Positions 1 to 29,884 are shown, numbered from the stretch's first letter. The stretch is 42,997 nt of DNA from an uncultured Rhodothermales bacterium (GCA_964527795.1 CAZGOS010000003.1:1-42997); one strand, 5' to 3'. The notes: generated from the sequence alone by a model not told the origin. A program made the numbers and translations.

Positions 1-20
1 ATCCGTACCTGCACTATGCC

Positions 21-1280
21 ATGTTCAACAGCCTGGCGAACGTACTCACGGACGAGGCGGCGAAAGTTTTCAAATTTGAGGAGCAGGAAAAGCTCCACGA
101 AGACATCATCGATACCGGCCTTGCGAAAATCTATCAGTCCCACCTTGAAGTTGCCCGGCACATAGCCTCCGAAGAAGGAGTTGATCTGAAGATTACACTG
201 CTCGACGGCAAGGCGTTTGAGAAGGTGCTGGAATACGTACATCGAGTCGGGCCGTGGCTTCTTGTAATGGGCCGAATCGGTGTTCACAGTGATGCCGGCA
301 TGGATATAGGAAGCAATACCGAAAACCTACTCCGCATGGCGCCCTGCAATGTGTTTCTCTCCAGCCGGAGGTTCTCTCCGGATGTCGATGTGAAGGCGGA
401 CGAGTCCATGATCTGGGCGGAACCGGCCCAGCGCATACTGGACAAGGCCCCCGATTTTGCGAAAGGAATCGCGCGTACGATCGTGCATCGCTGGGCCATG
501 GAACGAGGGCACTCCGTCATCACGACCTCGGTACTGACACAGGCGCTTTCCACCATTCTTCCGGAGTCGTCCATGCGCGCCATGGGTATTATCGCGGAAG
601 ATCTGGCCGCTAAAAAGTTGGGGGAAGAAAACGCCGTTGTTTACGTCTGCCGGAAATGCGGCTGGGTCGCCCGTGGATTTGAGCCGAAGAAATGCACCGT
701 CTGTGAGGCCGGACCGGAAAAGCTTCAGAAGCTCGACCGTGAAATCATTGACGGTCTGGGTCCCCGGGACGGAGCATTTCACGAAGAAAAAGCCTTCGAC
801 AATGTTCGCTTACATTACACGGACGATGCTCGCGACCTGATTCGTTCGCTTCCCGACGGCTATCAGCGACGACGCGCAGAGGCGCAGGTTGAGAAACGAG
901 CCCGGGTACGCAAGATGACCATGATCACGAAAGAAATGGTGGAGGACGTTGTCGGGCAGACAAAGGAAACCGCGAAAAACCTGGAAGAAAAGGGGGAACT
1001 GGGCCAACGAGCGGTTGACACAGCCATGAAAGGCAAAGAATCGGTGGATCGCTATGTGCGCGACGGAGCCTTCGTATGGACGCGGGAAGCCCTTGCGCGT
1101 CTGAACAGAGTTCCGGAAGGATTCATGCGCAACGCCACGAAAAAATGCATCGAGAAGCTCGCCGCTTCCAGCAGGATGGATCTGATCGACCTGAATCTGG
1201 TGGAGGAAGGAATCAATAGCGGGTTGAACGTCATGGAAGAGAAGAGCAAGAAGCAGAACAGGCAGAAGGAGGACCGGTAG
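21..1280 (+). CDS. USP-like / Cys4 knuckle / 3x PCP_red-like repeat protein (5' end probably cut by the window edge)
   Basis: The frame is open back to nt 3 with no upstream stop, so the N-terminus is likely missing. aa ~60-115 resemble the C-terminal half of a universal stress protein fold (LLVMGRIGVHSDAGMDIGSNTENLLRMAPCNVFLSS). A rubredoxin-like CRKC-x14-CTVC knuckle lies at nt 639-707. Three ~46-aa repeats (nt 411-548, 810-953, 1074-1211) follow the pattern [WY]-x2-[ED]-A-x3-[LIM]-x2-[AVLI]-P-x-[FG]-...-I-[TD]. By eye this is the C-terminal domain of protochlorophyllide reductase subunit B (Pfam PCP_red). Confidence 0.6.
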   Translation: MFNSLANVLTDEAAKVFKFEEQEKLHEDIIDTGLAKIYQSHLEVARHIASEEGVDLKITLLDGKAFEKVLEYVHRVGPWLLVMGRIGVHSDAGMDIGSNTENLLRMAPCNVFLSSRRFSPDVDVKADESMIWAEPAQRILDKAPDFAKGIARTIVHRWAMERGHSVITTSVLTQALSTILPESSMRAMGIIAEDLAAKKLGEENAVVYVCRKCGWVARGFEPKKCTVCEAGPEKLQKLDREIIDGLGPRDGAFHEEKAFDNVRLHYTDDARDLIRSLPDGYQRRRAEAQVEKRARVRKMTMITKEMVEDVVGQTKETAKNLEEKGELGQRAVDTAMKGKESVDRYVRDGAFVWTREALARLNRVPEGFMRNATKKCIEKLAASSRMDLIDLNLVEEGINSGLNVMEEKSKKQNRQKEDR

Positions 1281-1392
1281 ACGCGACGTTCGGGGCGCGA
1301 AGCACTATGAAAACAAAACACGATATTGCGGCGCACGGTGTATCCTACGTTGCCAATGAGATTGGCGCTTATACGATAATTGAAGAAGTGCC

Positions 1393-1866
1393 ATGAAATT
1401 TCTTTGTGTGAATTGCAACGTACAGATGACTCTCGAAAAATCCCGGGGGCCGGATGACGGGTCTCTCTCGGTCGTATTTGGCTGCTCATCGTGTGGTCGA
1501 AAAATTGCCATGTTGACCAACTCCGAGGAAACCCAGGTGCTGCACTCACTCGGCATCAAGATTGCCGCGAGCGAGAAAGAGGCCGCTCCGATGGAAACGA
1601 ATCGCTCGTCTCCTATGGATAATCCAGGAGCAGCCGAGTCGCTGGAATCCGCCAAAGCAGATCCGACGGATAAAACCAGCGGCGGCGCTATCGACGCTCA
1701 ATCCGAACTGCAGTGGACACCGGAAGCCCTGGAACGGATGGACCGCATACCGGCGTTCGTCCGGGGAATGGTACAGAAAGGGATCGAGGATTATGCAAGG
1801 GCAAATGACATAACACGGGTTGACGAAGCCGTTCTCAAAGATGTGCGCGACGGATTCGGATTCTAA
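1393..1866 (+). CDS. Small Cys4 zinc-ribbon + PCP_red-like domain protein
   Basis: N-terminal CVNC-x22-CSSC ribbon, a low-complexity linker, then WTPEALERMDRIPAFVRGMVQKGIEDYARANDITRVDEAVL. This is the same module repeated three times in the upstream ORF. Confidence 0.6.
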   Translation: MKFLCVNCNVQMTLEKSRGPDDGSLSVVFGCSSCGRKIAMLTNSEETQVLHSLGIKIAASEKEAAPMETNRSSPMDNPGAAESLESAKADPTDKTSGGAIDAQSELQWTPEALERMDRIPAFVRGMVQKGIEDYARANDITRVDEAVLKDVRDGFGF

Positions 1867-1896
1867 TACACGTCCGGCGACCGCCAACGTGCACGT

Positions 1897-2604
1897 CTAA
1901 TCATCAGGTTTGAGATCGAATGTAGCGGTCTCCGTCTCACCGGGGCCGACCGTGATCGGCTTCGATTCTCCTTCTAAAGACTCATGCCATACGACCAGTT
2001 CATACGTTCCAGGAGGCACATCCTTTAGCGTGAATTCTCCACTCTCGTCCGTCACCGCATAATACGGGTGCGCAGCCACCACGATAACAGCACTCATCCA
2101 GTTATGGATATCGCACGATACGCGGGTGAAATCCGGAAATCGGAATCTGCGCCCGGCAACTTCCATCTCATTCATGGTCTTGGGCATCGCCAGGTTGACG
2201 GGACGATTGTTCTCAGGCGCTGTATGAAAATTATGGAGAATACCGTCGGAATTGCGCACCTTCAACGCCTGACCAACGGGCAGTATCACAACATGCGGGT
2301 CGAAAACACACCCTTTCTGGTCCAGTACAACGACATCTTCCGTCCGCCATGTCTGCGTCACATCGATTCCTTCCAGGTAGACGATTGCATTTTTCAGGCC
2401 GGACGACTCGCCGTCAACGATGAGTGTCTCATCTGGAATTTCGCTGTCACATGATGAAAACTCGTCGCTGACGGAATGGAAAACCGGTTCAACATCGGGG
2501 CCGTCATAACGGATCGCACCTCTGATCACCGACGTTGTCTGGGCCGTTGAGATCGTCGGAATCACCGCCGAAAGGAATAGGAAAATCAGAATTCGATTCT
2601 TCAT
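1897..2604 (-). CDS. Secreted cupredoxin (amicyanin-spaced type-1 Cu ligands) fused to a CarboxypepD_reg-like beta-sandwich
   Basis: Signal peptide MKNRILIFLFLSAVIPTISTAQ. Candidate Cu ligands are LHNFH upstream and C-D-I-H-N-W-M (C-x2-H-x2-M, the spacing found in amicyanin). The C-terminus YAVTDESGEFTLKDVPPGTYELVVWHE is typical of carboxypeptidase-regulatory-like domains. It is the last gene of a 4-gene minus-strand operon, 14 nt after the porin gene. Confidence 0.65.
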   Translation of the reverse strand: MKNRILIFLFLSAVIPTISTAQTTSVIRGAIRYDGPDVEPVFHSVSDEFSSCDSEIPDETLIVDGESSGLKNAIVYLEGIDVTQTWRTEDVVVLDQKGCVFDPHVVILPVGQALKVRNSDGILHNFHTAPENNRPVNLAMPKTMNEMEVAGRRFRFPDFTRVSCDIHNWMSAVIVVAAHPYYAVTDESGEFTLKDVPPGTYELVVWHESLEGESKPITVGPGETETATFDLKPDD

Positions 2605-2618
2605 TTTCAGCTCGGTTC

Positions 2619-3698
2619 TTAAAAGAAAATATGGAATTGAAACATCAGTTGATCCTGGTTCAGGGGCACATTTTGCGGAATGAATCGGTTGATCCGATAG
2701 AATACTCCGATCTGTAGAAACTGTGTGATAAACGGTTCGATGCCAAAGGTTAAACGATCCTGGCCGTCCAGCGTATTCTTTACGTCCCGACGACGATCAA
2801 AAAATTCGTAGGTCGTCCTGACATTGAAACCGCGCATCGGAAGGAAGTAAAGTTCGACGAAGCCGGCGAACTGTTCCCTCTTGCCAAACCGCATGAAATC
2901 GCCTTCGGCGGCTAAGGTAAATCGTCCAACATTCAGACCGGCGAACATCCCCATTTTGTAATCGATGCTCCCTCGAATATTCTGACTGAACGATCCGCCG
3001 ATTCGAAAGCGTCGAAACAGAATCTGGCCTATGACCGACACCTGATTACGTGTCAGATTGGCCATGACTGAAGTTCTCCCGGGCTCGAAACCGACCTCGA
3101 TTCCCAGATCGTGCTTGCTGTAGGTGAATCCCGTCCTTGCGCGAATAAATGCATCATCGTCGCGCAGTCTGAGCCCGAACGGCAACAGCATACGGCCAAC
3201 TTTCAAATACGAATTGAAGCGCCTGAACTGAATCAGACCGAAGAATTCGCGGTTTTCCGTGCCCGGAGCCAGTGTCTGGTCGACATAGGCCGTAAGCAGA
3301 TCCGGTACCAGGCGGACTGAGAGATACAGATTCGCTTCGGGAATCCGGGAATTCGTTGTCGCCTCGCCTTCTTCACCCTCCGGTGTCGTGTATCGAAGCA
3401 GAGAAATGTTGTCTATGCGCAGGTTGGATCCCACGGAGATCGATCTGCTAAGCCTTCCGTCAAAAAAACTCGCCGACCGGATGGGCTTCATCGCCAGATT
3501 GGTCTGCGAATAGATCACTCCAAAACTGGTCCGTTTGCCTCCTCCCGTCCGATTCACATGGCATTGAGAACACTTTAATCCTGTTCGAAGCGCCATGTAG
3601 GGCTCCGCCTGTGCCGGTTTCGTAATGGGAGCGATCATTCCAATGCAGAAAACCAGGGCAACCGGAATTCGAGTGAATGTTATGTGTGAAACGCGCAT
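2619..3698 (-). CDS. Fused monohaem cytochrome c / outer-membrane beta-barrel (Cyc2-like porin-cytochrome candidate)
   Basis: Signal peptide ending AQA. A single CSQCH motif (nt 3558-3572) lies ~12 aa into the mature protein. The remaining ~300 aa show alternating-hydrophobic amphipathic beta-strand patterns (for example NLYLSVRLVPDLLTAYV, FTLAAEGDFMRF, FNVRTTYEFFD). The terminus is the OMP-type FQFHIFF with a terminal Phe. Confidence 0.6.
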   Translation of the reverse strand: MRVSHITFTRIPVALVFCIGMIAPITKPAQAEPYMALRTGLKCSQCHVNRTGGGKRTSFGVIYSQTNLAMKPIRSASFFDGRLSRSISVGSNLRIDNISLLRYTTPEGEEGEATTNSRIPEANLYLSVRLVPDLLTAYVDQTLAPGTENREFFGLIQFRRFNSYLKVGRMLLPFGLRLRDDDAFIRARTGFTYSKHDLGIEVGFEPGRTSVMANLTRNQVSVIGQILFRRFRIGGSFSQNIRGSIDYKMGMFAGLNVGRFTLAAEGDFMRFGKREQFAGFVELYFLPMRGFNVRTTYEFFDRRRDVKNTLDGQDRLTFGIEPFITQFLQIGVFYRINRFIPQNVPLNQDQLMFQFHIFF

Positions 3699-3707
3699 TG
3701 TTCGGGT

Positions 3708-4214
3708 TCAGTCGTCTAGTGCTCCGGCTTTTATCCACGCAACCAGCCATTCAACCTCTGTTTTGGACACGAACGGCGGTCCATTCGATGGCATGCGGAA
3801 TCCTTTTTTGGGAGCAACGGCTGTGATTTTCTGGACGAGATAACTCTTCACCGGGTCACCGGGAAGAATCCGCAGTCTCGGATCTCGGTCTGGAAGCTGG
3901 AACGACGGCTGCAGGACGAGTGATTTATAGGAGTTGCCCACGGTCAAATCCAGACCGTTCTCCTCGTCCCCGCCTGTATTATTGTATCCGGATCCTCCCG
4001 GCGAATGACAGCTCGCACAGTAGGTATCGAAAATAGGCTGAATCTGGGACGAGAAACCCAACTCATCCAACGGCATTCCGCTTTGGGTCAAACCGAGACC
4101 GTCCCCCTTACACGAGAGCAAGACAGATGCGAGAAGAAATCCGATACCGACCTGGAAACCACGTCCCGAGCCCACCGCTCTCCTCAATATTTTTCCTCTA
4201 ATGAGTAAGCTCAT
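3708..4214 (-). CDS. Lipoprotein monohaem cytochrome c (PSCyt1-like domain)
   Basis: Lipobox VLLSC. IQPIFDTYCASCHSPGG plus the C-terminal EVEWLVAWIKAGA resemble the Planctomycete-type cytochrome c domain. The start overlaps the upstream gene's stop by 17 nt, and there is a 9-nt gap to the porin gene. Confidence 0.7.
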   Translation of the reverse strand: MSLLIRGKILRRAVGSGRGFQVGIGFLLASVLLSCKGDGLGLTQSGMPLDELGFSSQIQPIFDTYCASCHSPGGSGYNNTGGDEENGLDLTVGNSYKSLVLQPSFQLPDRDPRLRILPGDPVKSYLVQKITAVAPKKGFRMPSNGPPFVSKTEVEWLVAWIKAGALDD

Positions 4215-5157
4215 CGTCGTGCATGAAGAGTCGATAGAATAGATTCGGTCTTCTTGCCAGACTTTTTACAAAATACACCAACGACCATTTTCGGCGACTG
4301 TCCAGCTTCTGTGTCTCTGTATTATCTAATAGCTCTATCTCGCGCTCCGTCGGCTGCTTGAGGAAATACGCTTTCAGAGCCTGAATCTCGGCGTCGGAAT
4401 AGGCTTTCCGATAGTCGTCAAGCGTTGAAAGACTATCGCTGCCAAAGAGGAATGCGTCCGCGTAGGATGGCATCGGTGTGCCATCCATACCGGTACTAAA
4501 AGTTCTGAAGATGCTTTCATTGTCGTCTCCGCCCTTATACCCGCCACGCGTGAAGTCGAACGCATCAATTTTTCTCCCCGTGGCGTCCTTCAACGTGCCT
4601 TCCAGATGACCGGACCCGGTTCCGCGTACGCCGTGACACGTCCAGCAGTCCATGAGCATGTACAGATACTTCCCCTCCGCGAAAACGATTTCCGTCACAG
4701 TAGGCTCGGCCGGGATGTGCAACGTTGGTGCAAACTCATCTTCGTCGAAATATGGCGCAAACGCCCTGACGTACGTCGCGACATCGCGCAACTCTCGCTC
4801 ACTCAACAGGTCTCGCCAGGACGGCATCATCGTGCGCGGAACTCCATTGCGGATCGTGCGCATCAGATCATCGACGGTAGGCAGATCGCCTGTAGGCGTT
4901 GACCTGAATTTGAAAACACCGGTCGAAAAATCGCTCGGTCGTGGATCCAGGGCGGCATAGCCGGGACCTTTTCCGTCCCCCTCGTCGCCATGACAGGCTG
5001 CGCACGCGCGTACGTATATATGCTCGCCTCGGCTTCGGGCCAGAGCAGCTTCTATCAAATCAGAAGCGGTGCGTTCAGACGTCCCGGCCGAAGACTGTGC
5101 GATTGCCGGACCGGCAGAGAAAAAGAGCAGGGTCAGACTGGTCAGTATGCTTCGCAT
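4198..5157 (-). CDS. Periplasmic dihaem cytochrome c
   Basis: Two CxxCH motifs (CAACH, CWTCH), each followed by a conserved F-[KR]-x-[FT]-x-x-G-x-x-G-T-P/M-MP-[SA]-[WY] type Met-ligand segment. MRSILTSLTLLFFSAGPAIAQ reads as a clean signal peptide, so I prefer the start at 5157; the longest ORF starts at 5205. It is a paralogue of the N-terminal half of the 11462-13420 protein. Confidence 0.8.
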   Translation of the reverse strand: MRSILTSLTLLFFSAGPAIAQSSAGTSERTASDLIEAALARSRGEHIYVRACAACHGDEGDGKGPGYAALDPRPSDFSTGVFKFRSTPTGDLPTVDDLMRTIRNGVPRTMMPSWRDLLSERELRDVATYVRAFAPYFDEDEFAPTLHIPAEPTVTEIVFAEGKYLYMLMDCWTCHGVRGTGSGHLEGTLKDATGRKIDAFDFTRGGYKGGDDNESIFRTFSTGMDGTPMPSYADAFLFGSDSLSTLDDYRKAYSDAEIQALKAYFLKQPTEREIELLDNTETQKLDSRRKWSLVYFVKSLARRPNLFYRLFMHDDELTH

Positions 5158-5321
5158 CAAGTCGGCTGCCCGTTCGGTGACTCTTGAGCCGGACCTTTGT
5201 CCCATATTGTGCTCACGCTATAGAATTGGTCGAGACGACTACTTTGATAATTGTGCACGATAGAACTCTGGGTAAATCCTTCGCGGGCTTGCCGCGATGT
5301 ACTTGTCGGATGATGCGCGCG

Positions 5322-5361
5322 CTGCCGGCTCGGGCAGACCGGAATCTGCGTCAGCCGGCAG
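5322..5361. promoter_or_regulatory. Interrupted 14-bp inverted repeat / stem-loop in the divergent control region
   Basis: CTGCCGGCT-cgg-GCAGA-ccggaa-TCTGC-gtc-AGCCGGCAG: 9+5 bp of perfect complementarity with a symmetric 3x3 internal loop. It lies between the two divergent cytochrome operons. Confidence 0.3.
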
Positions 5362-5432
5362 ATATCCGAAAAATACTCAGAACCCACATCAGTTTCATGG
5401 ATATTTCCGGCGGGGAAATTCGGATTCGTCAA

Positions 5433-5463
5433 GCTTCGGTCTGACGACATGGCTTCGGTCTGA
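5433..5463. repeat. 12-bp perfect direct repeat GCTTCGGTCTGA x2 (19 bp start to start)
   Basis: Copies at 5433-5444 and 5452-5463. A 6-bp inverted repeat ATTTCC-n5-GGAAAT lies just upstream at 5403-5419. Possible transcription-factor sites; function unknown. Confidence 0.3.
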
Positions 5464-5702
5464 TAATCAACGCATTAAACGAGCGCGATGAACCGGTGCT
5501 TGGGCCGGGTGCGATAGTGCATCTTTCTGCAACGCTGTTCGGTCGCCTCCTTCGGGATCATTTTCTACCTGTTCGTTATGTACAAAACTCAGGTATTCCC
5601 CCACAACATTTGTATTAAGACGGGATTACAATTCTGGGGATGAATCGACTCGAGACATGCTGGTTCACCTGCGTCGACTCCGTGCAACCTTCAGCGCCTG
5701 CC

Positions 5703-6455
5703 ATGCAAGAACATGTAAACCCCGCATCGCCAAACCAACAAATCCCTATTACGGAGAAGAAGGTGTGCACACGCTTTCGCGCAATTCCATCACGTATCTC
5801 GATCGGGATATTACTGGGCTGTACTTTCCTCGCGAGTTGCGATATCGGGCCTAAACACGAGGAGCCTGTAGCCCCTGAAACTCCCTCCCTCACGGCTCCG
5901 CTCGACGGATCCGCTGATCAGCAGAACGCTCTCTATCTGGAATGGACCGAGTCGCCTGTGGCTTCAGCATATCATGTTCAGGTATCCACTCAATCGGATT
6001 TTCTTGATCTGACCGTCGATGACCGAAATATTCTAGTTCCGATTACACCGGTAAAAGATTTGCAGGTCGATTCAACCTACCACTGGCGGGTGAGAGCTTT
6101 TAACGAAGTGGGTTTCAGCGATTGGTCGTCGGCTTGGTCGTTCACGCCTTCATCACCCGCATCGTTTCCAGCCGTTCCACAGCTCGTATATCCGCCAGAC
6201 GGGACAATTGATCTGGGAACCACCGTTGAATTCAAGTGGAGGACTACAAAAGGTTCCAGATTTTATCATATTCAGGCATCTCTGGAACGGGATTTTTTCA
6301 GCAGGGAAGCCGATATGATCGTGGCTGACACGGCACAGTCTGTTTCGGCGCTCGTATATGAGTATTGGTATTACTGGCGCGTGCGGGGACAAAATGCCGC
6401 CGGATATGGGCCCTGGTCTCCTACGTGGTTAATCGTAATCGCGGCCGGCGGATAG
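5703..6455 (+). CDS. Lipoprotein with two tandem Fn3/Ig-like repeats
   Basis: Lipobox FLASC. Two ~95-aa repeats each carry P-x-DG-...-L/F-x-W-...-Y-x-[VI]-Q-[VA]S-...-Y-[HY]-WRVR-[AG]-x-N-x-x-G-...-WS. The start is ambiguous: ATG at 5640 or 5703, or a GTG at 5763 preceded by GGAGAAGAAG that would give a compact lipoprotein signal. Confidence 0.6.
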   Translation: MQEHVNPASPNQQIPITEKKVCTRFRAIPSRISIGILLGCTFLASCDIGPKHEEPVAPETPSLTAPLDGSADQQNALYLEWTESPVASAYHVQVSTQSDFLDLTVDDRNILVPITPVKDLQVDSTYHWRVRAFNEVGFSDWSSAWSFTPSSPASFPAVPQLVYPPDGTIDLGTTVEFKWRTTKGSRFYHIQASLERDFFSREADMIVADTAQSVSALVYEYWYYWRVRGQNAAGYGPWSPTWLIVIAAGG

Positions 6456-6520
6456 ATCCGACGCCGATAAACAGGACGATCGATTCGAACAATTGGTACG
6501 CATAATCCGGTTATAGCGAC

Positions 6521-7861
6521 ATGAAATCATTTCATACAGAAAGAATCCTCTTTGGCGGATTGATATTCGGAATCAGTTTGGCCGGATGCACACTTTCACA
6601 GTCAGAAGTGGACGATACCATTCTGGACGAGCAGTTAATCCAGGTCCTCACAAAGAACGGTGAGCGTACCCTTGCCAATTTCATATTACCGGACAGCGAC
6701 GATTTTTCCTCCATCCCCCAGGATCCGGCAAATCTTCTTACTCTGGACAAAGTAGAGCTGGGTAAGCTACTGTTTCATGAAACCGCACTTGCCACAAATC
6801 CGCGGCACGAGAGCGGAAGGGGAACGTACGCATGCGCGACATGCCATCATGCAGCGGCCGGTTTCCAGGCAGGACGGAAGCAGGCCATAGCCGATGGTGG
6901 TTCCGGCTGGGGTGAGAGAGGTGAAGGACGTACACGGAATGTTGCCTACGAAGTAGAAGATCTGGATATTCAGCCTATCCGGTCTCCTACCATTCTGAAC
7001 ACTGCCTATCAACGAATCACGAAGTGGGACGGCGGTTTCGGCGCACACGGACTGAATGAAGGTACGGAGTCAAGTTGGATTCCCGGCACCGATGCCGCCA
7101 TGAATTGGTTGGGATACGACGGTCTCGAAACACAGGCCATCCGGGGATTGGTTGCCCATCGAATGGGCGATATCGAATCGAGTATCGTAGCCACTCATCC
7201 TACGTACACCGAGCTTTGGGACCGTGCATTTCCAGGTGAGCCTGTTTCGGTTGAAAAAGCGGGATTCGCCATAGCCGCGTACGAACGTACGGTTTTTGCC
7301 AATCAAGCCCCGTTCCAGCGCTGGCTAAGGGGTGAAACCAGCGCCATGTCCCCAGACGAAAAGCGAGGAGCTCTCGTCTTTTTTGGGGATACCGGTTGCG
7401 AGCGCATGTGCCACACCGGCGGCCCTCTCAGTTCAGTAAATTATTATGCTTTGGGAGTGGCGGATATGGAGGGTTCGGACGTTTACGGTGATATTCCTGA
7501 AACGCTGGGTAGAGGAGGTTTTCTTCAGGACCCGGACCAATACTTCATGTTCAAGATTCCACAACTCTACAATCTCAAGGACTCCCCCTATTACGGACAC
7601 GGCGGAATGTTCAGATCCCTTCGGGAGATCGTCGAATATTACAACGAAGCTGTTCCTGCCCGAATCCTTCCTGAAGGGCGCATCAAGAGTACGTTCAAAC
7701 CTCTCGAATTAACGGAGACACAGATTGACAATCTCGTGCTCTTTCTGACGGAATCACTCTACGACCCAAACTTAATGCGCTACGTGCCCGACTCGCTGCC
7801 TTCGGGAAACTGCACGCCGGCAAATGATCCGATTTCTAGAGTTGATCTGGGCTGCGACTGA
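6521..7861 (+). CDS. Dihaem cytochrome c peroxidase / MauG-family lipoprotein
   Basis: Lipobox SLAGC. LGKLLFHETAL...YACATCHHAAAGF is the classic first haem site (nt 6833-6847). FKIPQLYNLKDSPYYGHGGMFRSLREIVEYYN matches the CCP/MauG C-terminal signature. The second haem site reads GCERMCHTGG, which is CX3CH rather than CXXCH (nt 7397-7414). Confidence 0.8.
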   Translation: MKSFHTERILFGGLIFGISLAGCTLSQSEVDDTILDEQLIQVLTKNGERTLANFILPDSDDFSSIPQDPANLLTLDKVELGKLLFHETALATNPRHESGRGTYACATCHHAAAGFQAGRKQAIADGGSGWGERGEGRTRNVAYEVEDLDIQPIRSPTILNTAYQRITKWDGGFGAHGLNEGTESSWIPGTDAAMNWLGYDGLETQAIRGLVAHRMGDIESSIVATHPTYTELWDRAFPGEPVSVEKAGFAIAAYERTVFANQAPFQRWLRGETSAMSPDEKRGALVFFGDTGCERMCHTGGPLSSVNYYALGVADMEGSDVYGDIPETLGRGGFLQDPDQYFMFKIPQLYNLKDSPYYGHGGMFRSLREIVEYYNEAVPARILPEGRIKSTFKPLELTETQIDNLVLFLTESLYDPNLMRYVPDSLPSGNCTPANDPISRVDLGCD

Positions 7862-7968
7862 CGGGACGAAAGCATGAAGTGTTCGAAGGGAAACGTCGAT
7901 CGACTACGAGCACCGTCGAATCATCGCAGCGGATCGGTTTTGCGGTGTCCGAAACGAAATCAGACTGA

Positions 7969-7984
7969 GCCCGGCCTTCCGGGC
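7969..7984 (+). other. GC hairpin GCCCGG-CCTT-CCGGGC between the peroxidase gene and the bd-like operon
   Basis: Perfect 6-bp stem with a 4-nt loop and no following T-run, so at best a weak or partial terminator or an RNA processing element. Confidence 0.25.
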
Positions 7985-8028
7985 GACCGTTGTTCCGGTG
8001 CTCCACGGCTCTGGAGCGAGGCGAGTTG

Positions 8029-9798
8029 ATGGTAGGGCTAAATCACCGTTTCAGGCGATCACGCCTGCTGTGGTTGGCCCTTCTGGCTGCAATCGCCGTC
8101 GTCACACTTCTAGCAGTGCCGACCGAAGCATTTCCGCAGGAAGCCGTACAGGAAATACCCGCCGATCCCGAATACCGCAGGCTTCCCATGATCGGTAGCC
8201 GCGTCGGTATGTGGGTTGTAGGTCAGCTCCATCTGATGTTCGCGGCTTTCGTACTGGCAGTGCCCCTCGTCTCGCTCATCATCGAGATCGTGGGGCATAT
8301 GAAGAAGGAGAAGCGCTATGACGACCTGGCGTACGAATTCATGAAACTGATGTCGGTATCCTTTTCGCTGACGGCATCGCTGGGAGCACTACTGACGATT
8401 ATGCTGGTCGTGCTGTATCCGAGACTAACGACCTACCTCGTCTCGATCTTTAGCTGGACCTTTTTCCCGTATGCCCTTCTCTTTTTCCTCGAAGCTGTTT
8501 TTCTCTACAGTTATTACTACGGCTGGGGAAAGTTTTCGCCTCGGGTACACATCGCACTCGGAATTGGCCTCAACCTCACCGGGTTGTCCATCATGTTCAT
8601 CGCGAACGCCTGGCTGACGTTCATGAATACGCCCGGCGGCATCTCCGAGACAGGGGCGCTCGTGAACCTGTGGGATGCTATTAATAACTATACCTGGATG
8701 CCCATCAACATCCACCGAACAATTGCCAACGTTGCTTTTGGCGGTTCGATTGCGGCTGCGTACGGCGCATACAAGTATCTCGGCGCCAAAACGCCGGAGG
8801 CCCGCGCCCACTACGACTGGATGGCGTACGTAAGTATTCTCATCGCCATCATTGCCCTCATCCCTCTTCCTTTCGCCGGATATTTACTCGGGAAAGAGAT
8901 CTATGCGTTCTCCCAGTCGCTCGGAATAGCCACCATGGGAGGGACTTTCTCCTGGATCTTCATCATCCAGGGCGTCCTTGTGGGCAACCTGTTTCTGGCT
9001 GCCAACTACTACCTCTGGGTCAGCATGGACCGAATCGAAGGCGCAGAGCGGTATCGGAAATTCATCAAATACCTGCTCGCTTCGATCGCGGTCACGTACA
9101 TCGTCTGGGCGACGCCTCACTCGCTCGTTGCGACGGTTGAAGAAGCGAGGCGGATGGGTGGAGCCAACCATCCGATGCTGAACGTGCTGGGCGTGATGTC
9201 GGCTAAGAATACGGCCGTCAATGTGCTCATCCTGACGACGTTCGTGAGCTTTCTCCTTCACCGACGCAGCGACAAGGAGGCCACCGTGTCATGGGCGCGC
9301 ACCGGTAAGCGCGTCCAGCTTTGGATATTCATCGTGACGACGGTCTTCGTTGTTTTTCTGGGAGTGTACGGGTACTTCGTAGAAGCGCGCGTTCGAATCG
9401 CCTTCTCGATTCCACAGGTCCTGTCGGTCCTCCTGGCAATGATATCGGTAACGGTAATCGACATCTATCTGTTCAGAAACGCCAGGAAGCGCGGTTCGAT
9501 TCGATGGGGCGAAATGCCGGCCCGGGCGCATTACGTTCTTTTCTTTCTGGCCGTCACCTATGCCTGGACGATGGGCATCATGGGATACGTGCGCGGGGCG
9601 ATGCGGCAGCACTGGCACGTGTACGGGGTGATGGCGGATACGTCTCCGGACGCATTCACGCCTTCGATCGGATATGCGTCGGTCGTCACGTCGGTGACGG
9701 TTTTCATCTTCTTCGTCTTCATCGTATTCGTATTCTGGTTGGCGGGTCTCACCGGGCGAAAACCCTGGGAGTCTACCGAGGAGGAGTCAACGGCATGA
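8029..9798 (+). CDS. Cytochrome bd-like oxidase subunit (CydA homologue lacking the Q-loop; extended C-terminal TM region)
   Basis: CydA signatures by eye: a TM1 His (VGQLHLMFAAFVLAVPL), LFFLEAVFLYSYYYGWGK (compare E. coli FFLESTF..FGW), ANAWLTFMNTPGG (compare ANGWMQNPVG), and a TM5 His (NIHRTIANVAFGG). The segment where the quinol-binding Q-loop sits in CydA is only a few residues long (YLGAKTPEARAHYDW). Several extra TM helices follow and no cydB-like gene is present. GAGG lies 8 nt before the ATG at 8029; the longest ORF starts at a TTG at 7990. Confidence 0.75.
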   Translation: MVGLNHRFRRSRLLWLALLAAIAVVTLLAVPTEAFPQEAVQEIPADPEYRRLPMIGSRVGMWVVGQLHLMFAAFVLAVPLVSLIIEIVGHMKKEKRYDDLAYEFMKLMSVSFSLTASLGALLTIMLVVLYPRLTTYLVSIFSWTFFPYALLFFLEAVFLYSYYYGWGKFSPRVHIALGIGLNLTGLSIMFIANAWLTFMNTPGGISETGALVNLWDAINNYTWMPINIHRTIANVAFGGSIAAAYGAYKYLGAKTPEARAHYDWMAYVSILIAIIALIPLPFAGYLLGKEIYAFSQSLGIATMGGTFSWIFIIQGVLVGNLFLAANYYLWVSMDRIEGAERYRKFIKYLLASIAVTYIVWATPHSLVATVEEARRMGGANHPMLNVLGVMSAKNTAVNVLILTTFVSFLLHRRSDKEATVSWARTGKRVQLWIFIVTTVFVVFLGVYGYFVEARVRIAFSIPQVLSVLLAMISVTVIDIYLFRNARKRGSIRWGEMPARAHYVLFFLAVTYAWTMGIMGYVRGAMRQHWHVYGVMADTSPDAFTPSIGYASVVTSVTVFIFFVFIVFVFWLAGLTGRKPWESTEEESTA

Positions 9799-10652
9799 AG
9801 CTCAGCGTCAGAATTATCGTCTTCGTGACTCTTTCGATCGGATTTTACATGTATATAGGCCTGATTGTCCCGCAGACAACGATCTACCCTCCAGAGACTG
9901 CCGATCTTCGTAGTGATCTCACACCGGCAGAGCTGGCCGCAGCGGGAGAGGATATCGTCGCCGGAAAAGGCACCTGTCTGGTCTGTCATGCAATCGGAAA
10001 GCTCGAAGCCGCGCTACGCTATCCCGATCTCGGAAACATAGGTTCCGTCGCGGCATCCCGAGTCGACAGCCTCTCGGATGTGGCCTATCTCGCCCAATCG
10101 CTCTACGAGCCGGACTTATTCATCGTCGAGGGTTTCCTGCCCGGAATGCCTCCAGTCGATCGCCCCCCCATAGGTTTAACGGACGGCGAGATTCTGGCGG
10201 TAATCGCCTACATGCAGAATCTCGGCGGAGAGCCTTCGGTAACGCTGCAGACAAGGCTGCATTACCAGTCTGATTCGGTTCAGGTTGTCTTGCCGGAAGC
10301 GTCAACGTCTCAAGAAGAGATCACCAGAAGCCGAACGCCCCAACCGACGGGACCGAGAGGATCTCGCCTGTTCGTAAACTACTTCTGCACCACGTGCCAC
10401 CTGGTTGACGCTCCGAATCCAATCGATCCGGAAACGCCGCCCCTCAGAGGACCAAGCCTGTACGATGTCGGTTCCCGGCTATCCAGAGCGGCACTTTATG
10501 AGGCGATACTGGAACCGAACCTCAATCTCTCGGAGGGATACGAGGCCGATATAATGACTTCCACGCTCATTCCGAGTGGATTCTACGACGAACTGACTCC
10601 GGTTGAACTGCGCGCTCTTGTCGATTATTTGGCAACACTCACGGGTGGCTAA
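9795..10652 (+). CDS. Membrane-anchored dihaem cytochrome c
   Basis: The ATG overlaps the upstream stop (ATGA) and GAGGAGGAG lies 8-9 nt upstream. There is an N-terminal TM helix (IIVFVTLSIGFYMYIGLIV) and two CxxCH motifs (CLVCH, CTTCH). The 443-aa track ORF starting at 9321 is an out-of-frame extension through the upstream gene. Confidence 0.8.
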   Translation: MKLSVRIIVFVTLSIGFYMYIGLIVPQTTIYPPETADLRSDLTPAELAAAGEDIVAGKGTCLVCHAIGKLEAALRYPDLGNIGSVAASRVDSLSDVAYLAQSLYEPDLFIVEGFLPGMPPVDRPPIGLTDGEILAVIAYMQNLGGEPSVTLQTRLHYQSDSVQVVLPEASTSQEEITRSRTPQPTGPRGSRLFVNYFCTTCHLVDAPNPIDPETPPLRGPSLYDVGSRLSRAALYEAILEPNLNLSEGYEADIMTSTLIPSGFYDELTPVELRALVDYLATLTGG

Positions 10653-11465
10653 GTGAATCTTTTCATCATTCTCGGGATCGTTGGCGGCCTGATCGCGCTC
10701 AGATTCTTAAAGCCGAACCCTTTGTTGAGGGCTCTGGTCTGGTTGCTCGCCAGCTATCTGGGCCTTCGTTTCGCACCGGATCCACCGTTGCCGTCGACGA
10801 TCGTTTCGATGTTCATGGCCATCATCGCGCTGTGCCTGCTCGCCTATCTGACAGCAACGAAGGAGCGAATGCAGGATGCTGTGAGTCGGATCTCTGTTTT
10901 TCTTCTCGATCGGCGATTTGTCATTCCTCTGGTACTGCTGCTCATCGGGCTGCCCGTCCTGGTCGCAACACGAGTATATGTTAATGCCACGAGCGATCCT
11001 TCACCGCCGATTTCGGTCAGGACCGTGCATCCGCCTCCTCCAACTTCGATCTCCTTCAGGGATACGGAGATTGACCTCATCGCTGGGGATAATCCGTACC
11101 GTGAACTGGAAACGAGCAATCCCGAGGCATTTCAAGACCACCTCGAAAACGGACTTCGGGTCTATTACGAAAACTGTCTGCTTTGTCACGGATCCGAACT
11201 CAATGGGGACGGCCTCTTCGCCCACGGGCTGGATCCTATCCCGACAAATTTCAGAGATGCAACAACGATAGCCATACTGCAGGAGTCCTACCTTTTTTGG
11301 CGTATTGCCAAAGGCGCGCCGGGTCTTCCCGACGAGTCAACACCCTGGTCTTCGTCCATGCCGGCATGGGAGCCGTTCCTGTCCGCGGAAGAAATCTGGG
11401 ACGTCATACTCTTCCTCTACGATTACACCGGCCAGAGGCCGCGAGCCGTGGTGATCCCAAAATGA
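10653..11465 (+). CDS. Polytopic (~3-4 TM) monohaem cytochrome c
   Basis: The GTG start directly abuts the upstream TAA. Hydrophobic helices sit in the N-terminal 110 aa. The C-terminal class-I cytochrome c domain reads YYENCLLCHGSELNGDG...SSMPAWEPFLSAEEIWDVILFLYDY (CcoP/ActE-like flavour). Confidence 0.75.
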   Translation: MNLFIILGIVGGLIALRFLKPNPLLRALVWLLASYLGLRFAPDPPLPSTIVSMFMAIIALCLLAYLTATKERMQDAVSRISVFLLDRRFVIPLVLLLIGLPVLVATRVYVNATSDPSPPISVRTVHPPPPTSISFRDTEIDLIAGDNPYRELETSNPEAFQDHLENGLRVYYENCLLCHGSELNGDGLFAHGLDPIPTNFRDATTIAILQESYLFWRIAKGAPGLPDESTPWSSSMPAWEPFLSAEEIWDVILFLYDYTGQRPRAVVIPK

Positions 11466-13420
11466 GAGCGCTACTCCTGTCGATCGGTCTGGCCGCGCAC
11501 GTCTTCTCAGCAGACGCGCAGGATATCGATCTGGGTACGGACACCCAGCGCGGATCCGGCCGGCTGCTCTACGAGATAAAATGTGCGCAGTGCCACGGTG
11601 TCAAGGGAGACGGGGTGTCTCCGGGAAGTCCGTATCTCAGGCCCGGGCCCCGGGATTTCACGTCCGGGATCTACAAATTCAGGACGACGGAAAATGGAGA
11701 GATCCCTTCGGATGAGGATATCAAGCGCAGTATCCGAAACGGAATGCCGTATACGAGCATGCCGGCGTGGCCGTCGCTCAGCGACGATGACGTCACGAAC
11801 CTGATGTACTACCTGAAGACGTTCTCAGAGGACTTTATCTACTTCGGAGACGCGGTTTCCTTCGAAATTCCAGATCCCCCTGAAATCACTGCAGAGTCCC
11901 TCGCACGCGGCCGGGACGTTTACGTAGAGAATCAGTGTACCGACTGCCACGGAAACCACGGCCGAAGCAACGGAATATCGTCCCCAACGCTAAAGGACAT
12001 GTGGAATTCGCCCATCAGGGCGACAGATATGACCATGCGATGGACGTATCGAGGCGGTACGTCGCGGAAGGACATCTACAGGACGTTCACAGCCGGGATA
12101 GACGGAACTCCCATGCCTGCCTACAAGATCGAACCGCTGGAAGATCGATGGCACCTCGTGAACTACGTGGCATCACTTTCCGAGGTTGAGTCCGACTATG
12201 GCACGGTGGTCAGGGCGGTTCGGGTCCCCGACACGCCCGGCGATGCACTCTCTCCGGCGATGTTCAGGAGCGCTCCTCCCACGATGTTTCCTGTGGTGGC
12301 GCAACTCATCGAGCCCGGGCGTTCCTTTTTTCCAGCTGCTACAGCCATCGAAGTCCGGGCCGTCGTAACGGGTGAACACGTCGCCGTGATGCTCCAGTGG
12401 AATGACATGAGCGCTCAGGTTACCGGTTGGAACGATCCGAAGATCGACGTACCGCTGTGGCTGGAAGATTCGGACACAACTGAGGTCTTTTCAGATGCAG
12501 TCGCCGTGCAGTTTCCGTCGAGTACCGAATCGGGCCTGCAGAAGCCCTATTTCCTGTTCGGGGATATCAAACGGCCCACGGACATCTGGTTCGCGGATCT
12601 CTCGGAAACGGAGCCGTGGCACTACATAGGACGAGGAACCGGGTTGTTGCAGATCGGAAGCACGCCCCTTGACATGTGGTCCAGGTGGGACGACGGACAG
12701 TGGACGGTCATATTCCGCCGGGCGCGCATCGAGATGGACCACGCCGCTTTTGAAGAAGGTCGATTCGTCCCCATAGCCTTCTCCGTATGGGATGGATTCA
12801 GTCGGGAGAGAGGCAACCGGAGGGGCGTCACGTCGTGGTATAATCTGTACGTGCAGCGGGCAGACGACGGATCTCCAATTCCGAGCATGCTCATCCTGGG
12901 TCTACTGACGCTGATGGCCGGTGTCGTCGCTGCGATCCGTCTTCAGTGGAAATTTCTGGGTGACGATTCACGCGGCAACGTATTGAGAGAGAACGAATAC
13001 CTGTTGCGCAAATGTCCAATTAGCCGGCCTCTGAAAAGAATAATCCGTCGCGAGGGCCTGACTATCGGTATCAAGGACTATCGAAAGCTGAGAGAAACGC
13101 AGCCCGACACATATAATTTCTCACCTGATGAGCTGATCAAAATCAGCGACTCATACCTCCGCGCGGGCAACGTCGATGCAGCCCTCGCTTTTCTGCACCT
13201 TAACCTCGAAACACACCCACACGATGTCCCGGCGCTGGATCACGTCGGACATGCCTACATGCAGGCCGGGAAACCGGACCAGGCCACCGCTTTTTATGAG
13301 AAATCAGCCGCGCTGAACCCGGAAAGATCGATGGGTAGGCTTATTCTGGAAGCGCGCAGACGTGGAGATCGGAACAGCAAACGTATAGTGATTTCCCCTA
13401 TACATTACCGGGCAGTATAG
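11462..13420 (+). CDS. Dihaem cytochrome c + EB_dh/DOMON-type (ethylbenzene dehydrogenase gamma-like) domain + TM helix + TPR tail
   Basis: The ATG overlaps the upstream stop (ATGA) and is followed by the signal peptide MRALLLSIGLAAHVFSADAQ. Haem motifs are CAQCH and CTDCH. The middle region (EVRAVVTGEHVAVMLQWND..., AVAVQFPS..., KPYFLFGD..., DIWFADLS, GQWTVIFRRA, FSVWDGFSRERGNRRGVTSWYNLYV) reads as an EB_dh-type domain. A single TM follows (MLILGLLTLMAGVVAAI), then a TPR-like tail (YLRAGNVDAALAFLHLNLETHPHD...YMQAGKPDQATAFYEKSAALNP). The track ORF start at 11183 is an artefactual extension. Confidence 0.7.
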   Translation: MRALLLSIGLAAHVFSADAQDIDLGTDTQRGSGRLLYEIKCAQCHGVKGDGVSPGSPYLRPGPRDFTSGIYKFRTTENGEIPSDEDIKRSIRNGMPYTSMPAWPSLSDDDVTNLMYYLKTFSEDFIYFGDAVSFEIPDPPEITAESLARGRDVYVENQCTDCHGNHGRSNGISSPTLKDMWNSPIRATDMTMRWTYRGGTSRKDIYRTFTAGIDGTPMPAYKIEPLEDRWHLVNYVASLSEVESDYGTVVRAVRVPDTPGDALSPAMFRSAPPTMFPVVAQLIEPGRSFFPAATAIEVRAVVTGEHVAVMLQWNDMSAQVTGWNDPKIDVPLWLEDSDTTEVFSDAVAVQFPSSTESGLQKPYFLFGDIKRPTDIWFADLSETEPWHYIGRGTGLLQIGSTPLDMWSRWDDGQWTVIFRRARIEMDHAAFEEGRFVPIAFSVWDGFSRERGNRRGVTSWYNLYVQRADDGSPIPSMLILGLLTLMAGVVAAIRLQWKFLGDDSRGNVLRENEYLLRKCPISRPLKRIIRREGLTIGIKDYRKLRETQPDTYNFSPDELIKISDSYLRAGNVDAALAFLHLNLETHPHDVPALDHVGHAYMQAGKPDQATAFYEKSAALNPERSMGRLILEARRRGDRNSKRIVISPIHYRAV

Positions 13421-13474
13421 TCGTACAATTTCAACCGCTTATTTAATTCCTGTAAGAATGAAGGGAGAAAGAAC

Positions 13475-13873
13475 ATGGCTTTAGAATGGAAGGATGAATT
13501 CGACTGTGGTGTGGCAGAGGTAAACGAACAACACCAACAGCTGGTTGGGCTACTCAATTCTTTGGAGCAAATGATTGCTGATGGGATTGAGAGTGGTCCT
13601 AAGGTGGACAGTCTGCTCAGCTCGCTGGCGTCTGATGCAGTGGCGCATTTCTCGTTTGAGGAAGGGTGCATGGCGCGCTACAATTGTCCGGCAGCCCGGT
13701 TAAACAAGGAAGCACACGCCCAATTTTTGGAGATCTTCGGGGATTTCCAGCGCGAAATTGAGGAAAACGGATCGAATGCACCGCTGCTCAAGAGACTACA
13801 CGAGACGGCTGAGGGTTGGATTGTTACACATATACTCAATGTGGATGTCCAGTTGAAACCGTGTGTTCACTGA
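13475..13873 (+). CDS. Bacteriohemerythrin-like protein
   Basis: WKDEFDCGVAEVNEQHQQLVGLLNSL is the hallmark N-terminus. HF..EE, H..F and H....D ligand segments are present. AAGGGAG lies ~9 nt upstream of the ATG, 54 nt after the oxidase operon. Confidence 0.8.
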   Translation: MALEWKDEFDCGVAEVNEQHQQLVGLLNSLEQMIADGIESGPKVDSLLSSLASDAVAHFSFEEGCMARYNCPAARLNKEAHAQFLEIFGDFQREIEENGSNAPLLKRLHETAEGWIVTHILNVDVQLKPCVH

Positions 13874-29817: not shown

Positions 29818-29870
29818 TTGTGTGTTTGCATTGTAGAAATAAAATCGGTCGTTTTTCAGCCCACGGGGCA

Positions 29871-29884
29871 TATTGTTAACAATA
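29871..29884. promoter_or_regulatory. Perfect 14-bp palindrome TATTGTTAACAATA upstream of ric
   Basis: Centred ~60 nt upstream of the preferred ric start. A TACAAT -10-like hexamer lies between it and the ATG on the coding strand. Candidate operator for an NO/nitrosative-stress regulator; the regulator is not in the window. Confidence 0.35.

Follow-up and report, generated by a model that had tools for sequence, protein, structure and literature searches.

Here, we analyzed a locus in a 42,997-nucleotide (nt) stretch of DNA (hereinafter, the window) from an uncultured Rhodothermales bacterium (GCA_964527795.1, CAZGOS010000003.1:1-42997), in which two sets of cytochrome genes are divergently oriented. 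The minus-strand set, which we denote module A, encodes a dihaem cytochrome c (5157-4198), a monohaem cytochrome c lipoprotein (4214-3708), an outer-membrane monohaem porin-cytochrome that is probably related to Cyc2 (hereinafter, the barrel; 3698-2619) and a secreted type-1 copper protein, or cupredoxin (2604-1897); the successive junctions are an overlap of 17 nt and gaps of 9 and 14 nt. Module B, on the plus strand, spans positions 8029-13420 and encodes a complex of the OR-N2 type within the cytochrome bd superfamily, namely, a CydA-like subunit with 14 transmembrane helices and no quinol site (8029-9798), two membrane-anchored c-type cytochromes, one with two haems (9795-10652) and the other with one haem and three transmembrane helices (10653-11465), and a subunit in which a dihaem cytochrome c is joined to a haem b-binding EB_dh domain, a transmembrane helix and a TPR tail (11462-13420). 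The genes of module B are translationally coupled, with junctions GGCATGAAG (ATGA), GGCTAAGTG (TAA-GTG) and AAAATGAGA (ATGA). Together, the two modules are a credible candidate for a route that draws electrons from outside the cell, for instance, from dissolved iron, to oxygen.

The map of open reading frames and the Pfam and NCBIfam matches reproduce all eleven genes, with their junctions and domains, that the first-pass annotation, made from the sequence alone, had placed at this locus, i.e., the eight listed above and three neighbors discussed further below. Two details had to be amended. In the plus-strand operon, the junctions are as described but the second gene starts at 9795, and the total of 11 c-haem motifs holds but comprises 10 canonical CXXCH motifs and one CX3CH variant (CERMCH), which is the second site of a MauG-like protein encoded between the modules. 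The motifs of module A are CAACH and CWTCH in the dihaem cytochrome c (two Pfam Cytochrom_C domains), CASCH in the lipoprotein (one Cytochrome_CBB3/Cytochrom_C domain) and CSQCH in the barrel, so that its three secreted carriers jointly hold three c-haems and one copper. In module B, CLVCH and CTTCH are found in the second gene product (identified by Pfam and transmembrane-helix prediction) and CLLCH in the third, whereas the composition of the fourth was derived from Pfam and NCBIfam; in total, the operon encodes five c-haems. The lipoboxes among the proteins of the locus are LLSC, which belongs to the monohaem lipoprotein, LASC and LAGC. Domain annotation of the window detected no bc1, alternative complex III or other quinol module, as annotated previously, and no cytochrome c oxidase (COX) genes.

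The barrel protein (359 amino acids) consists of a hydrophobic signal peptide ending in PAQA, the segment AEPYMALRT-GLK-CSQCH-VNRTGGGKRT, with its only haem-binding motif at residues 43-47, a 16-stranded β-barrel and a terminal phenylalanine (C-terminus FHIFF). Although neither Pfam nor NCBIfam yields a match, the AlphaFold2 model displays 16 strands (pLDDT 78), with the haem segment poorly defined, as expected without the cofactor, and a Foldseek search initiated with this model retrieves OprP (2o4v; 2.3e-12) as the top match and OprO (4rjx) as the fourth one, among other 16-stranded porins. Thus, the porin fold of the model and the N-terminal monohaem motif bear out the haem-bearing outer-membrane β-barrel originally proposed for this gene. 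The protein belongs to a large family: a word-indexed search recovered 285 relatives, every one of them labelled hypothetical, an exhaustive profile search identified 1,785 clusters at 50% identity (895 at <=1e-10), and a scan of species genomes located relatives in 470 of these. The lengths are mostly 353-371 amino acids among the 80 closest homologues and mostly 345-426 among the best 150 clusters. The 80 best carriers, which come from KSB1, Marinimicrobia/Fidelibacterota, Fibrobacterota, Latescibacterota, Gemmatimonadota, Myxococcota and Proteobacteria, are all metagenome-assembled genomes (MAGs) or single-amplified genomes of heterotroph-like organisms from soil, groundwater and sea water. 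An alignment of 30 barrel sequences revealed the invariant N-terminal signature AEPYxAxRxGxKCxxCHxNxxGGGxRT, including, in the numbering of the window protein, N49, G52-G54, R56 and T57. In some homologues of 580 amino acids, namely, P0103 and P0111 (L050, about 9270-11017), a Cys-rich acidic insert of ~220 amino acids separates the haem domain from the barrel.

The relationship between the barrel and Cyc2 can be assessed against the published definition of the latter, which includes a signal peptide, one CXXCH, an upstream AXPXFAR[Q/K][T/Y] motif, a downstream PXL, a 16-stranded porin and a length of at least 365 amino acids (Keffer et al. 2021, PMC8406198). In the corresponding pipeline, PXFAR[QK][TY] serves as a filter, and 365 amino acids is the length cut-off of both the pipeline and FeGenie (PMC8406198). 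With the Cyc2 family, represented by Acidithiobacillus ferrooxidans Cyc2, Mariprofundus Cyc2PV-1 and Leptospirillum Cyt572, the barrel shares the signal peptide, the single N-terminal CXXCH, the C-terminal Phe and the presence of periplasmic cytochrome c genes nearby, as well as the 16-stranded fold, OprP and OprO being the structural templates reported for Cyc2 (Keffer et al., PMC8406198). The register of the haem segment is identical, A-x-P-x-F-A-R-Q-T-G-x-x-CxxCH in Cyc2 versus A-E-P-Y-M-A-L-R-T-G-L-K-CSQCH in the window, and the N-termini of the barrel family follow the pattern AxPx(M/L/F)AxRTGxxCxxCH. Hence A, P, A and T are kept, along with the 3-residue spacing to CXXCH, whereas F-A-R-[QK] is not: the barrel family has (L/M)A(V/L)R at this place (AEPYMALRT in the window, AEPYLAVRT in the family consensus). 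PXL is missing as well, with VNRTGGGKRT found instead, part of an N-x-T-GGG-K-RT insertion that is invariant in the family. Finally, the protein falls short of 365 amino acids, and its family (353-420 amino acids) is shorter than Cyc2 (mostly >400).

For a profile comparison, an N-terminal Cyc2 consensus was searched against plasmids with tblastn, which yielded motif-perfect homologues in Ralstonia, Caballeronia, Methylocystis and Ideonella (for example, AVPAFARQTGMACMACHVSFPEL); a protein search with this reference set returned close Burkholderiales-type relatives only, with no Zetaproteobacteria or Gallionella Cyc2, and the set was widened to 28 motif-bearing sequences for hhalign. The haem domain of the barrel family aligns with these 28 sequences at 95.2%/2.8e-8 over 33 columns and the full-length family at 93.9%/1.6e-7, collinearly, whereas nine other haem sites of the window, used as controls, score 2-67% and align just 9-16 columns around CXXCH. 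The part of the protein that follows the haem domain, i.e., the barrel proper, gives a weak match on its own (28.9%/6e-4), the reference sequences are Burkholderiales and Methylocystis homologues that are not proven iron oxidases, and Met75, invariant in the reference set, has no equivalent in the barrel family. On these sequence comparisons, the barrel is probably a short, remote member of the Cyc2 superfamily. The earlier description of this protein as Cyc2-like therefore stands with regard to the haem-bearing 16-stranded porin and the N-terminal register but not with regard to the published hallmarks of motif, PXL and length, and both the published Cyc2 pipeline and the FeGenie length filter would discard it. 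In the wider Cyc2 superfamily, all members tested biochemically oxidize Fe(II) (PMC8406198).

The other three proteins of module A are secreted carriers. In the copper protein (235 amino acids), an N-terminal region with an invariant Cys pair is followed by the cupredoxin domain (residues ~95-180) and a CarboxypepD_reg β-sandwich (172-232). Pfam recognizes only the C-terminal CarboxypepD_reg domain, and a single-sequence search of the Protein Data Bank (PDB) was marginal (0.11), so that a family profile was needed; with 17 sequences, this profile matches the blue-copper protein 5fc9 (1.1e-5) and amicyanin (2.6e-5), and also pseudoazurin and copper nitrite reductases, the latter in their cupredoxin domains, with all matches spanning the ligand loop. 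In the cupredoxin alignment, the copper ligands H124, C164 and H167 are invariant, and position 170 is Met (M170 in the window) except in two Fibrobacterota sequences that have Glu. The type-1 copper site of the first-pass annotation is thus upheld by the conserved H-C-H-M ligands as well as the profile matches. Rusticyanin was considered and rejected as an identity for this protein, given that the structures closest to it are those of amicyanin and of a protein with a blue-copper domain, and that it is fused to CarboxypepD_reg. The invariant cysteines ahead of the copper domain, C52 and C99, probably form a disulfide in an extra N-terminal subdomain.

The dihaem cytochrome c of module A matches best, among PDB entries, chain B of 6h5l (2.5e-45), and the N-terminal dihaem module of the EB_dh subunit (window positions 11462-12200) matches the same chain at 1.1e-43. 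The two are paralogues, which fits docking of the dihaem cytochrome c at the complex that contains its relative. No c4 or Cyc1 structure is found among the PDB matches, and an identity as Cyc1/c4 was rejected. Chain B of 6h5l is deposited as "Conserved hypothetical cytochrome protein", and we provisionally take it to be Kustc0457, the dihaem cytochrome c found in stable association with the hydroxylamine oxidoreductase (HAO)-like nitrite reductase of Kuenenia. The nitrite reductase partner is Kustc0458. The likeness to that system extends to the sequence of the dihaem cytochrome but not to the context, which is anammox nitrite reduction in one case and an outer-membrane cytochrome with a bd-like oxidase in the other. 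The monohaem lipoprotein, the gene for which is kept immediately upstream of the barrel gene, is a putative periplasmic carrier.

The CydA-like protein of module B matches the Pfam family Cyt_bd_oxida_I (PF01654; 1.5e-24), with coverage restricted to positions 2-248 of the 418 in the profile, and among PDB entries, CydA 9r2g_A at 9.5e-16; the similarity is limited to the N-terminal half and ends before the Q-loop. The AlphaFold2 model, of moderate confidence (pLDDT 66), consists of an N-terminal anchor and 14 long helices, with no inter-helix membrane loop longer than ~27 residues and hence none big enough for a Q-loop, and the top 10 PDB matches obtained with it in Foldseek are all bd subunit I. 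The Q-loop-less bd-like oxidase among c-type cytochromes, as annotated at the outset, is thus recovered by Pfam, the PDB comparison and the model alike. More than 6,900 relatives are present in the protein collection, many of them 66-92% identical, from lineages that include Rhodothermales, Calditrichia, KSB1, Gemmatimonadota, Latescibacterota and the isolate Rhodocaloribacter litoris; the best named relatives, at 73-74% identity, are from Rhodothermales.

This type of oxidase is not new. The bd superfamily has been divided into qOR, OR-C and OR-N (Murali, Gennis and Hemp 2021); OR-N1 and OR-N2 possess 14 helices, and OR-N2 operons contain several cytochromes c and an ebdC homologue, with an electron donor that is unclear but may be a cytochrome c (Murali et al. 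2021). OR-N bd-like oxidases have been proposed to serve as the terminal oxidases of Nitrospira, Nitrospina and 'Ca. Manganitrophus'. Residues H68, Y148/E155, Y162/Y164, H229, M390/N394 and W529 of the window protein correspond to H99, Y183/E190, Y197/Y199, H269, M430/N434 and W569, respectively, of the OR-N2 column in Nitrospira numbering (Murali et al. 2021, Table S6), with identical Y-7-E-7-Y-x-Y and M-4-N spacings and consistent offsets elsewhere. Because these residues reproduce the OR-N2 column, 8029-13420 is, as judged by residue type and spacing rather than with the hidden Markov model of those authors, a bd-like operon of the OR-N2 type, which is a very common class known from earlier in silico work. 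With the Nitrospira and Manganitrophus bd-like terminal oxidase complexes of the OR-N2 subfamily (Murali et al. 2021), it shares the 14 transmembrane helices, the lack of a quinol site, the Y/E, YxY, M/N and W signature and an operon that encodes multiple cytochromes c together with a haem b subunit resembling ebdC. Also in common are the histidines equivalent to H19, which is the invariant H68, and to H186; thus, the O2-site histidine is kept, as is the channel Glu of the O2-reducing core. OR-C was rejected as the class of this oxidase since it calls for haem c motifs in CydA itself and 8 transmembrane helices.

The lack of a Q-loop, the five c-haems and a number of gene fusions indicate that the oxidase would take electrons from cytochrome c, the donor likewise inferred for OR-N2 by Murali et al. 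(2021). In one relative, from groundwater (L083), the CydA-like protein (665 amino acids) carries an N-terminally fused cytochrome c domain, and in L045 and L062, the third and fourth oxidase genes are fused. The EB_dh subunit bears the NCBIfam signature of dimethyl sulfoxide (DMSO)-reductase type II haem b subunits and also matches the ethylbenzene dehydrogenase gamma subunit (2ivf_C) in the PDB. Its transmembrane helix (residues 476-494) precedes a lineage-specific cytoplasmic TPR tail of ~150 amino acids (window positions 12890-13420), which is missing in the homologues of 500-525 amino acids from other lineages.

The conservation of the two modules and of their linkage was explored in 80 barrel-anchored loci, the best of the 470-genome scan. 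These loci, together with as much as 10 kb of flanking sequence in both directions, were searched with every protein of the window, neighbors being counted at no less than 60% query coverage. By this count, the monohaem cytochrome c is encoded beside the barrel in 51 of the 80 loci, the dihaem cytochrome c in 44 and the cupredoxin in 22. In 13 of the 80 (11 at >=60% coverage), the full OR-N2 block is located no more than 10 kb from the barrel gene; among the 32 loci with flanks of 8 kb or more in both directions, there are 7 such cases. These numbers compare with our estimate of about 0.5% for chance proximity of a single-copy block to a random gene in a genome of ~4 Mb. The 13 linked loci come from Fibrobacterota, Gammaproteobacteria, Burkholderiales, 'Deltaproteobacteria' and unclassified MAGs, that is, from at least four phylum-level lineages, and the modules are usually encoded on the same strand. 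Three arrangements are found. In unclassified MAGs, Gammaproteobacteria, Burkholderiales and 'Proteobacteria', the order on one strand is dihaem c - monohaem c - barrel - [cydA - dihaem c - transmembrane monohaem c - EB_dh] - cupredoxin, with barrel-to-cydA gaps of 18-65 nt in L001, L003 and L062; in a groundwater 'Deltaproteobacterium' with this arrangement, the dihaem cytochrome c gene follows the barrel gene. In Fibrobacterota and in the groundwater contig whose CydA has the fused cytochrome c domain, the OR-N2 block comes first, again on one strand, followed by dihaem c - monohaem c - barrel - cupredoxin; all eight genes of the groundwater locus are co-directional. The third, divergent arrangement is that of the window. 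The cupredoxin gene in these relatives thus follows either the barrel gene or the OR-N2 block. A complementary CydA-anchored set consisted of 25 metagenome loci, R. litoris and one further contig; wherever the flank suffices, the four-gene block is intact and in the same order.

The overall impression is one of two autonomous modules that have been joined repeatedly. The first-pass annotation had named a lack of synteny in relatives as one of the results that would refute its proposal, and the modules are syntenic in several phyla, often within one co-directional cluster, so that functional coupling between them is well supported. Other partnerships also occur: the barrel module adjoins an EB_dh protein in Marinimicrobia, whereas in KSB1-type loci (L081, 11511-20009; L094, 5005-8100), it adjoins a HisKA sensor kinase and sigma-54 response regulators and, in L081, lies also near a 925-amino-acid MtrC-like multihaem protein with a type IX secretion system (T9SS) sorting tail.

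From the gene content, folds, cofactor motifs and conserved linkage documented here, we infer a donor, an order of carriers, an acceptor and a direction of flow. A soluble extracellular or periplasmic one-electron donor, for which Fe(II) is the best candidate, would reduce the barrel haem; the electron would then pass to the lipoprotein cytochrome c, the dihaem cytochrome c and/or the cupredoxin, and from there to the OR-N2 complex, first to its periplasmic haems and, finally, to the CydA-like haems, where O2 would be reduced. We assign a probability of roughly 45% to this reading, with an Fe(II)-type donor and inward flow to O2. Apart from the differences between the barrel and Cyc2 outlined above, several lines of evidence tell against it. 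None of the 80 best barrel carriers is a known iron oxidizer, and no conserved Met or second His, as a sixth haem ligand, is found in the alignment of 30 barrel sequences, which implies that the haem may bind a ligand rather than simply relay electrons; both five-coordination and ligation by Tyr or Lys are conceivable. On the oxidase side, no report of a purified OR-N enzyme was found in the literature searched. Genes for NnrS and ScdA in the vicinity of some of the modules hint at a nitric oxide (NO) or nitrosative context, as does, for the chemistry involved, the match of the carriers to 6h5l_B. As for the linkage, the 10-kb surroundings of the barrel gene lack an OR-N2 block in the majority of its loci, and a barrel gene is found near cydA in none of the CydA-anchored loci, so that the coupling is optional.

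Fe(II) leads among the potential donors solely because the tested members of the wider superfamily oxidize it, and the same hardware could work inward with Mn(II), reduced humics, soluble shuttles or a periplasmic reductant as the donor. There is no iron-specific feature in the sequence, the haem-packing motif is unlike that of the iron-oxidizing Cyc2, and the carriers of the barrel are diverse heterotroph-like MAGs; furthermore, Mn(II) has to be taken seriously because, according to a published proposal, 'Ca. Manganitrophaceae' oxidize this metal with the help of Cyc2 as well as OR-N-type bd-like oxidases. Given, however, that Fe(II) is the only substrate on record for biochemically tested relatives and that Mn(II) calls for much higher potentials than usual for a single c-haem, we regard a donor other than Fe(II) as unlikely, albeit the most serious of the competing explanations. 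Still less probable is the reverse direction, with the barrel module exporting electrons and the OR-N2 complex serving as an entry or branch point rather than an O2 reductase. Such outward flow would agree with the MtrC-like protein in the KSB1 locus, with a hydrogenase encoded nearby in one locus and with the fact that the function of OR-N2 is a putative one, but it is at odds with the conservation of the H19-equivalent His and the channel Glu, with the absence of a linked quinol-oxidizing module in the window and with the cupredoxins and CydA-type haem sites, which are typical of high-potential, O2-directed chains.

The missing sixth ligand, together with the occasional NnrS and ScdA neighbors, leaves room for a ligand-binding or protective role, whereby the haem barrel and the oxidase would scavenge O2, NO or peroxide in the periplasm of micro-oxic cells and conserve no energy. 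Hemerythrin and MauG/CCP-like peroxidase genes adjoin the modules in the window, which also contains a ScdA/hemerythrin gene, and the fused cluster of L083 is flanked by NnrS and ScdA. These stress-type neighbors are not conserved across the loci, however, and a chain of four carriers with an outer-membrane cytochrome appears elaborate for mere scavenging, so we give this explanation little credence. The slim remaining chance is that the two modules are mere neighbors, each with other partners, brought together by the general clustering of respiratory genes. Most OR-N2 operons indeed lack the barrel, no OR-N2 block is found nearby in ~78% of the barrel loci with two flanks of 8 kb or more, and in Latescibacterota and Gemmatimonadota, the barrel gene stands alone among housekeeping genes. 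Conversely, the linkage recurs in several phyla and in three gene orders, and insertion of the OR-N2 block between the barrel and cupredoxin genes, on one strand and with gaps as short as 18-65 nt, is hard to account for without co-function.

The inward, iron-fed chain that we favor invites comparison with the rus operon of A. ferrooxidans, in which the gene order is cyc2-cyc1-orf-coxBACD-rus. The logic is the same as in the window in that an outer-membrane monohaem porin-cytochrome, a dihaem cytochrome c, a cupredoxin and a terminal oxidase are encoded together. The components differ, though: the oxidase is aa3 in the rus operon but a bd-like OR-N2 enzyme in the window, the dihaem cytochrome is c4/Cyc1 versus the 6h5l_B type, the cupredoxin is rusticyanin versus an amicyanin-like domain joined to CarboxypepD_reg, and the window has an extra lipoprotein monohaem cytochrome c. 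Accordingly, of the rus-operon-like conduit initially proposed for this locus, the four-layer logic remains, whereas Cyc1/c4, rusticyanin, aa3 and a barrel within the published bounds of Cyc2 do not. Both Cyc2-type iron oxidation chains and OR-N2 operons were known previously; what is apparently new is the short Cyc2-like clade and its recurrent joining to OR-N2 and the cupredoxin, a combination of OR-N2 operon and outer-membrane module that is confined to the window and a minority of lineages. In keeping with the earlier view that such a linked Cyc2-like/bd-like system has not been characterized, we found no description of it in the literature searched, which was incomplete and does not prove absence.

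In its broadest form, our proposal is that the short Cyc2-superfamily clade (~1,800 clusters at 50% identity and 470 species genomes), missed by iron-gene callers, provides the outer-membrane entry of a complete donor-to-O2 chain that is free of both quinones and haem-copper oxidases and ends in OR-N2. At this level of generality, the proposal is tentative and, in our judgment, rather doubtful. If it holds, the physiological donor route of the OR-N2 enzymes would be identified, and Fibrobacterota, KSB1, Marinimicrobia and several proteobacterial lineages would join the organisms that take up extracellular electrons. The linkage to module A, with its outer-membrane cytochrome-porin, cupredoxin and soluble cytochromes, offers a concrete hypothesis for the electron source of OR-N, and with eight defined proteins, the question of the OR-N2 donor becomes directly testable. 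Given that the barrel family lies outside the criteria used to call Cyc2, it may escape surveys of MAGs from groundwater, soil and the sea that look for iron or extracellular-electron metabolism. Even if the coupling is not respiratory, the family constitutes an uncharacterized class of haem-bearing outer-membrane pores.

The remaining genes of the locus show a different distribution. The two gene sets are separated by a divergent intergenic region of 482 nt (5158-5639), which presumably holds the promoters of both; scans of this region for promoters, terminators and inverted repeats gave no signal beyond chance expectation, and there was no palindrome of the FNR or Fur type. On its plus-strand side are the genes for an Fn3 lipoprotein (5640-6455; Pfam fn3) and a MauG/CCP-like dihaem lipoprotein (6521-7861; Pfam CCP_MauG), and 3' of the oxidase operon lies the hemerythrin gene (13475-13873; Pfam), all three on the plus strand. 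The first-pass annotation had counted these genes as parts of the system, but none of the 80 barrel-anchored loci contains a homologue of any of them, and the CydA-anchored set contains just one, a remote MauG-like protein in L103 (25% identity, ~8 kb from cydA); with conservation lacking in both anchor sets, we excluded them. A gene combining ScdA_N and hemerythrin is located ~15 kb away in the window (29071-29871), and in L083, NnrS is encoded upstream (1155-4832) and ScdA/hemerythrin downstream (20856-21095) of the fused cluster. The rest of the window is occupied by cell-wall, amino-acid and miscellaneous genes.

Next to the cupredoxin gene, the window carries two plus-strand genes with PCP_red, the C-terminal domain of the protochlorophyllide reductase B subunit, identified by Pfam (21-1280, Usp fused to two PCP_red domains; 1393-1866, PCP_red fused to a Cys-rich N-terminus). 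Genes of this kind accompany the OR-N2 block with or without the barrel and were found together with it in L001, L011, L013, L022, L023, L026, L050, L083, L091, L092, L095, L099 and L103. In the isolate R. litoris (CP076718, about 728-750 kb), they likewise occur with the four-gene block, and the barrel is missing from the surrounding 10 kb. In some relatives (L091, 16833-21842; L092, 9071-15764; L083, 11938-16734), PCP_red is encoded along with a radical-SAM/SPASM protein, in some cases itself containing PCP_red, a small ferredoxin and a CbiA/ParA-type ATPase. One may speculate that this set is involved in the maturation of a cofactor, perhaps a tetrapyrrole, for the bd-like enzyme, and a possible role for the radical-SAM, PCP_red and ParA-like genes is the production of a modified tetrapyrrole. 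In L092, a close relative of the window locus, a haem-copper oxidase set (3-5764) immediately precedes the OR-N2 cydA, in the same orientation, and comprises a 556-amino-acid gene product, COX3, COX4_pro and COX2; the first of these is cut by the contig end and has no Pfam record but is presumably COX1. This arrangement and the protein P0208, a fusion of COX4_pro with a CydA-like domain, suggest some link of OR-N2 to aa3-type oxidases.

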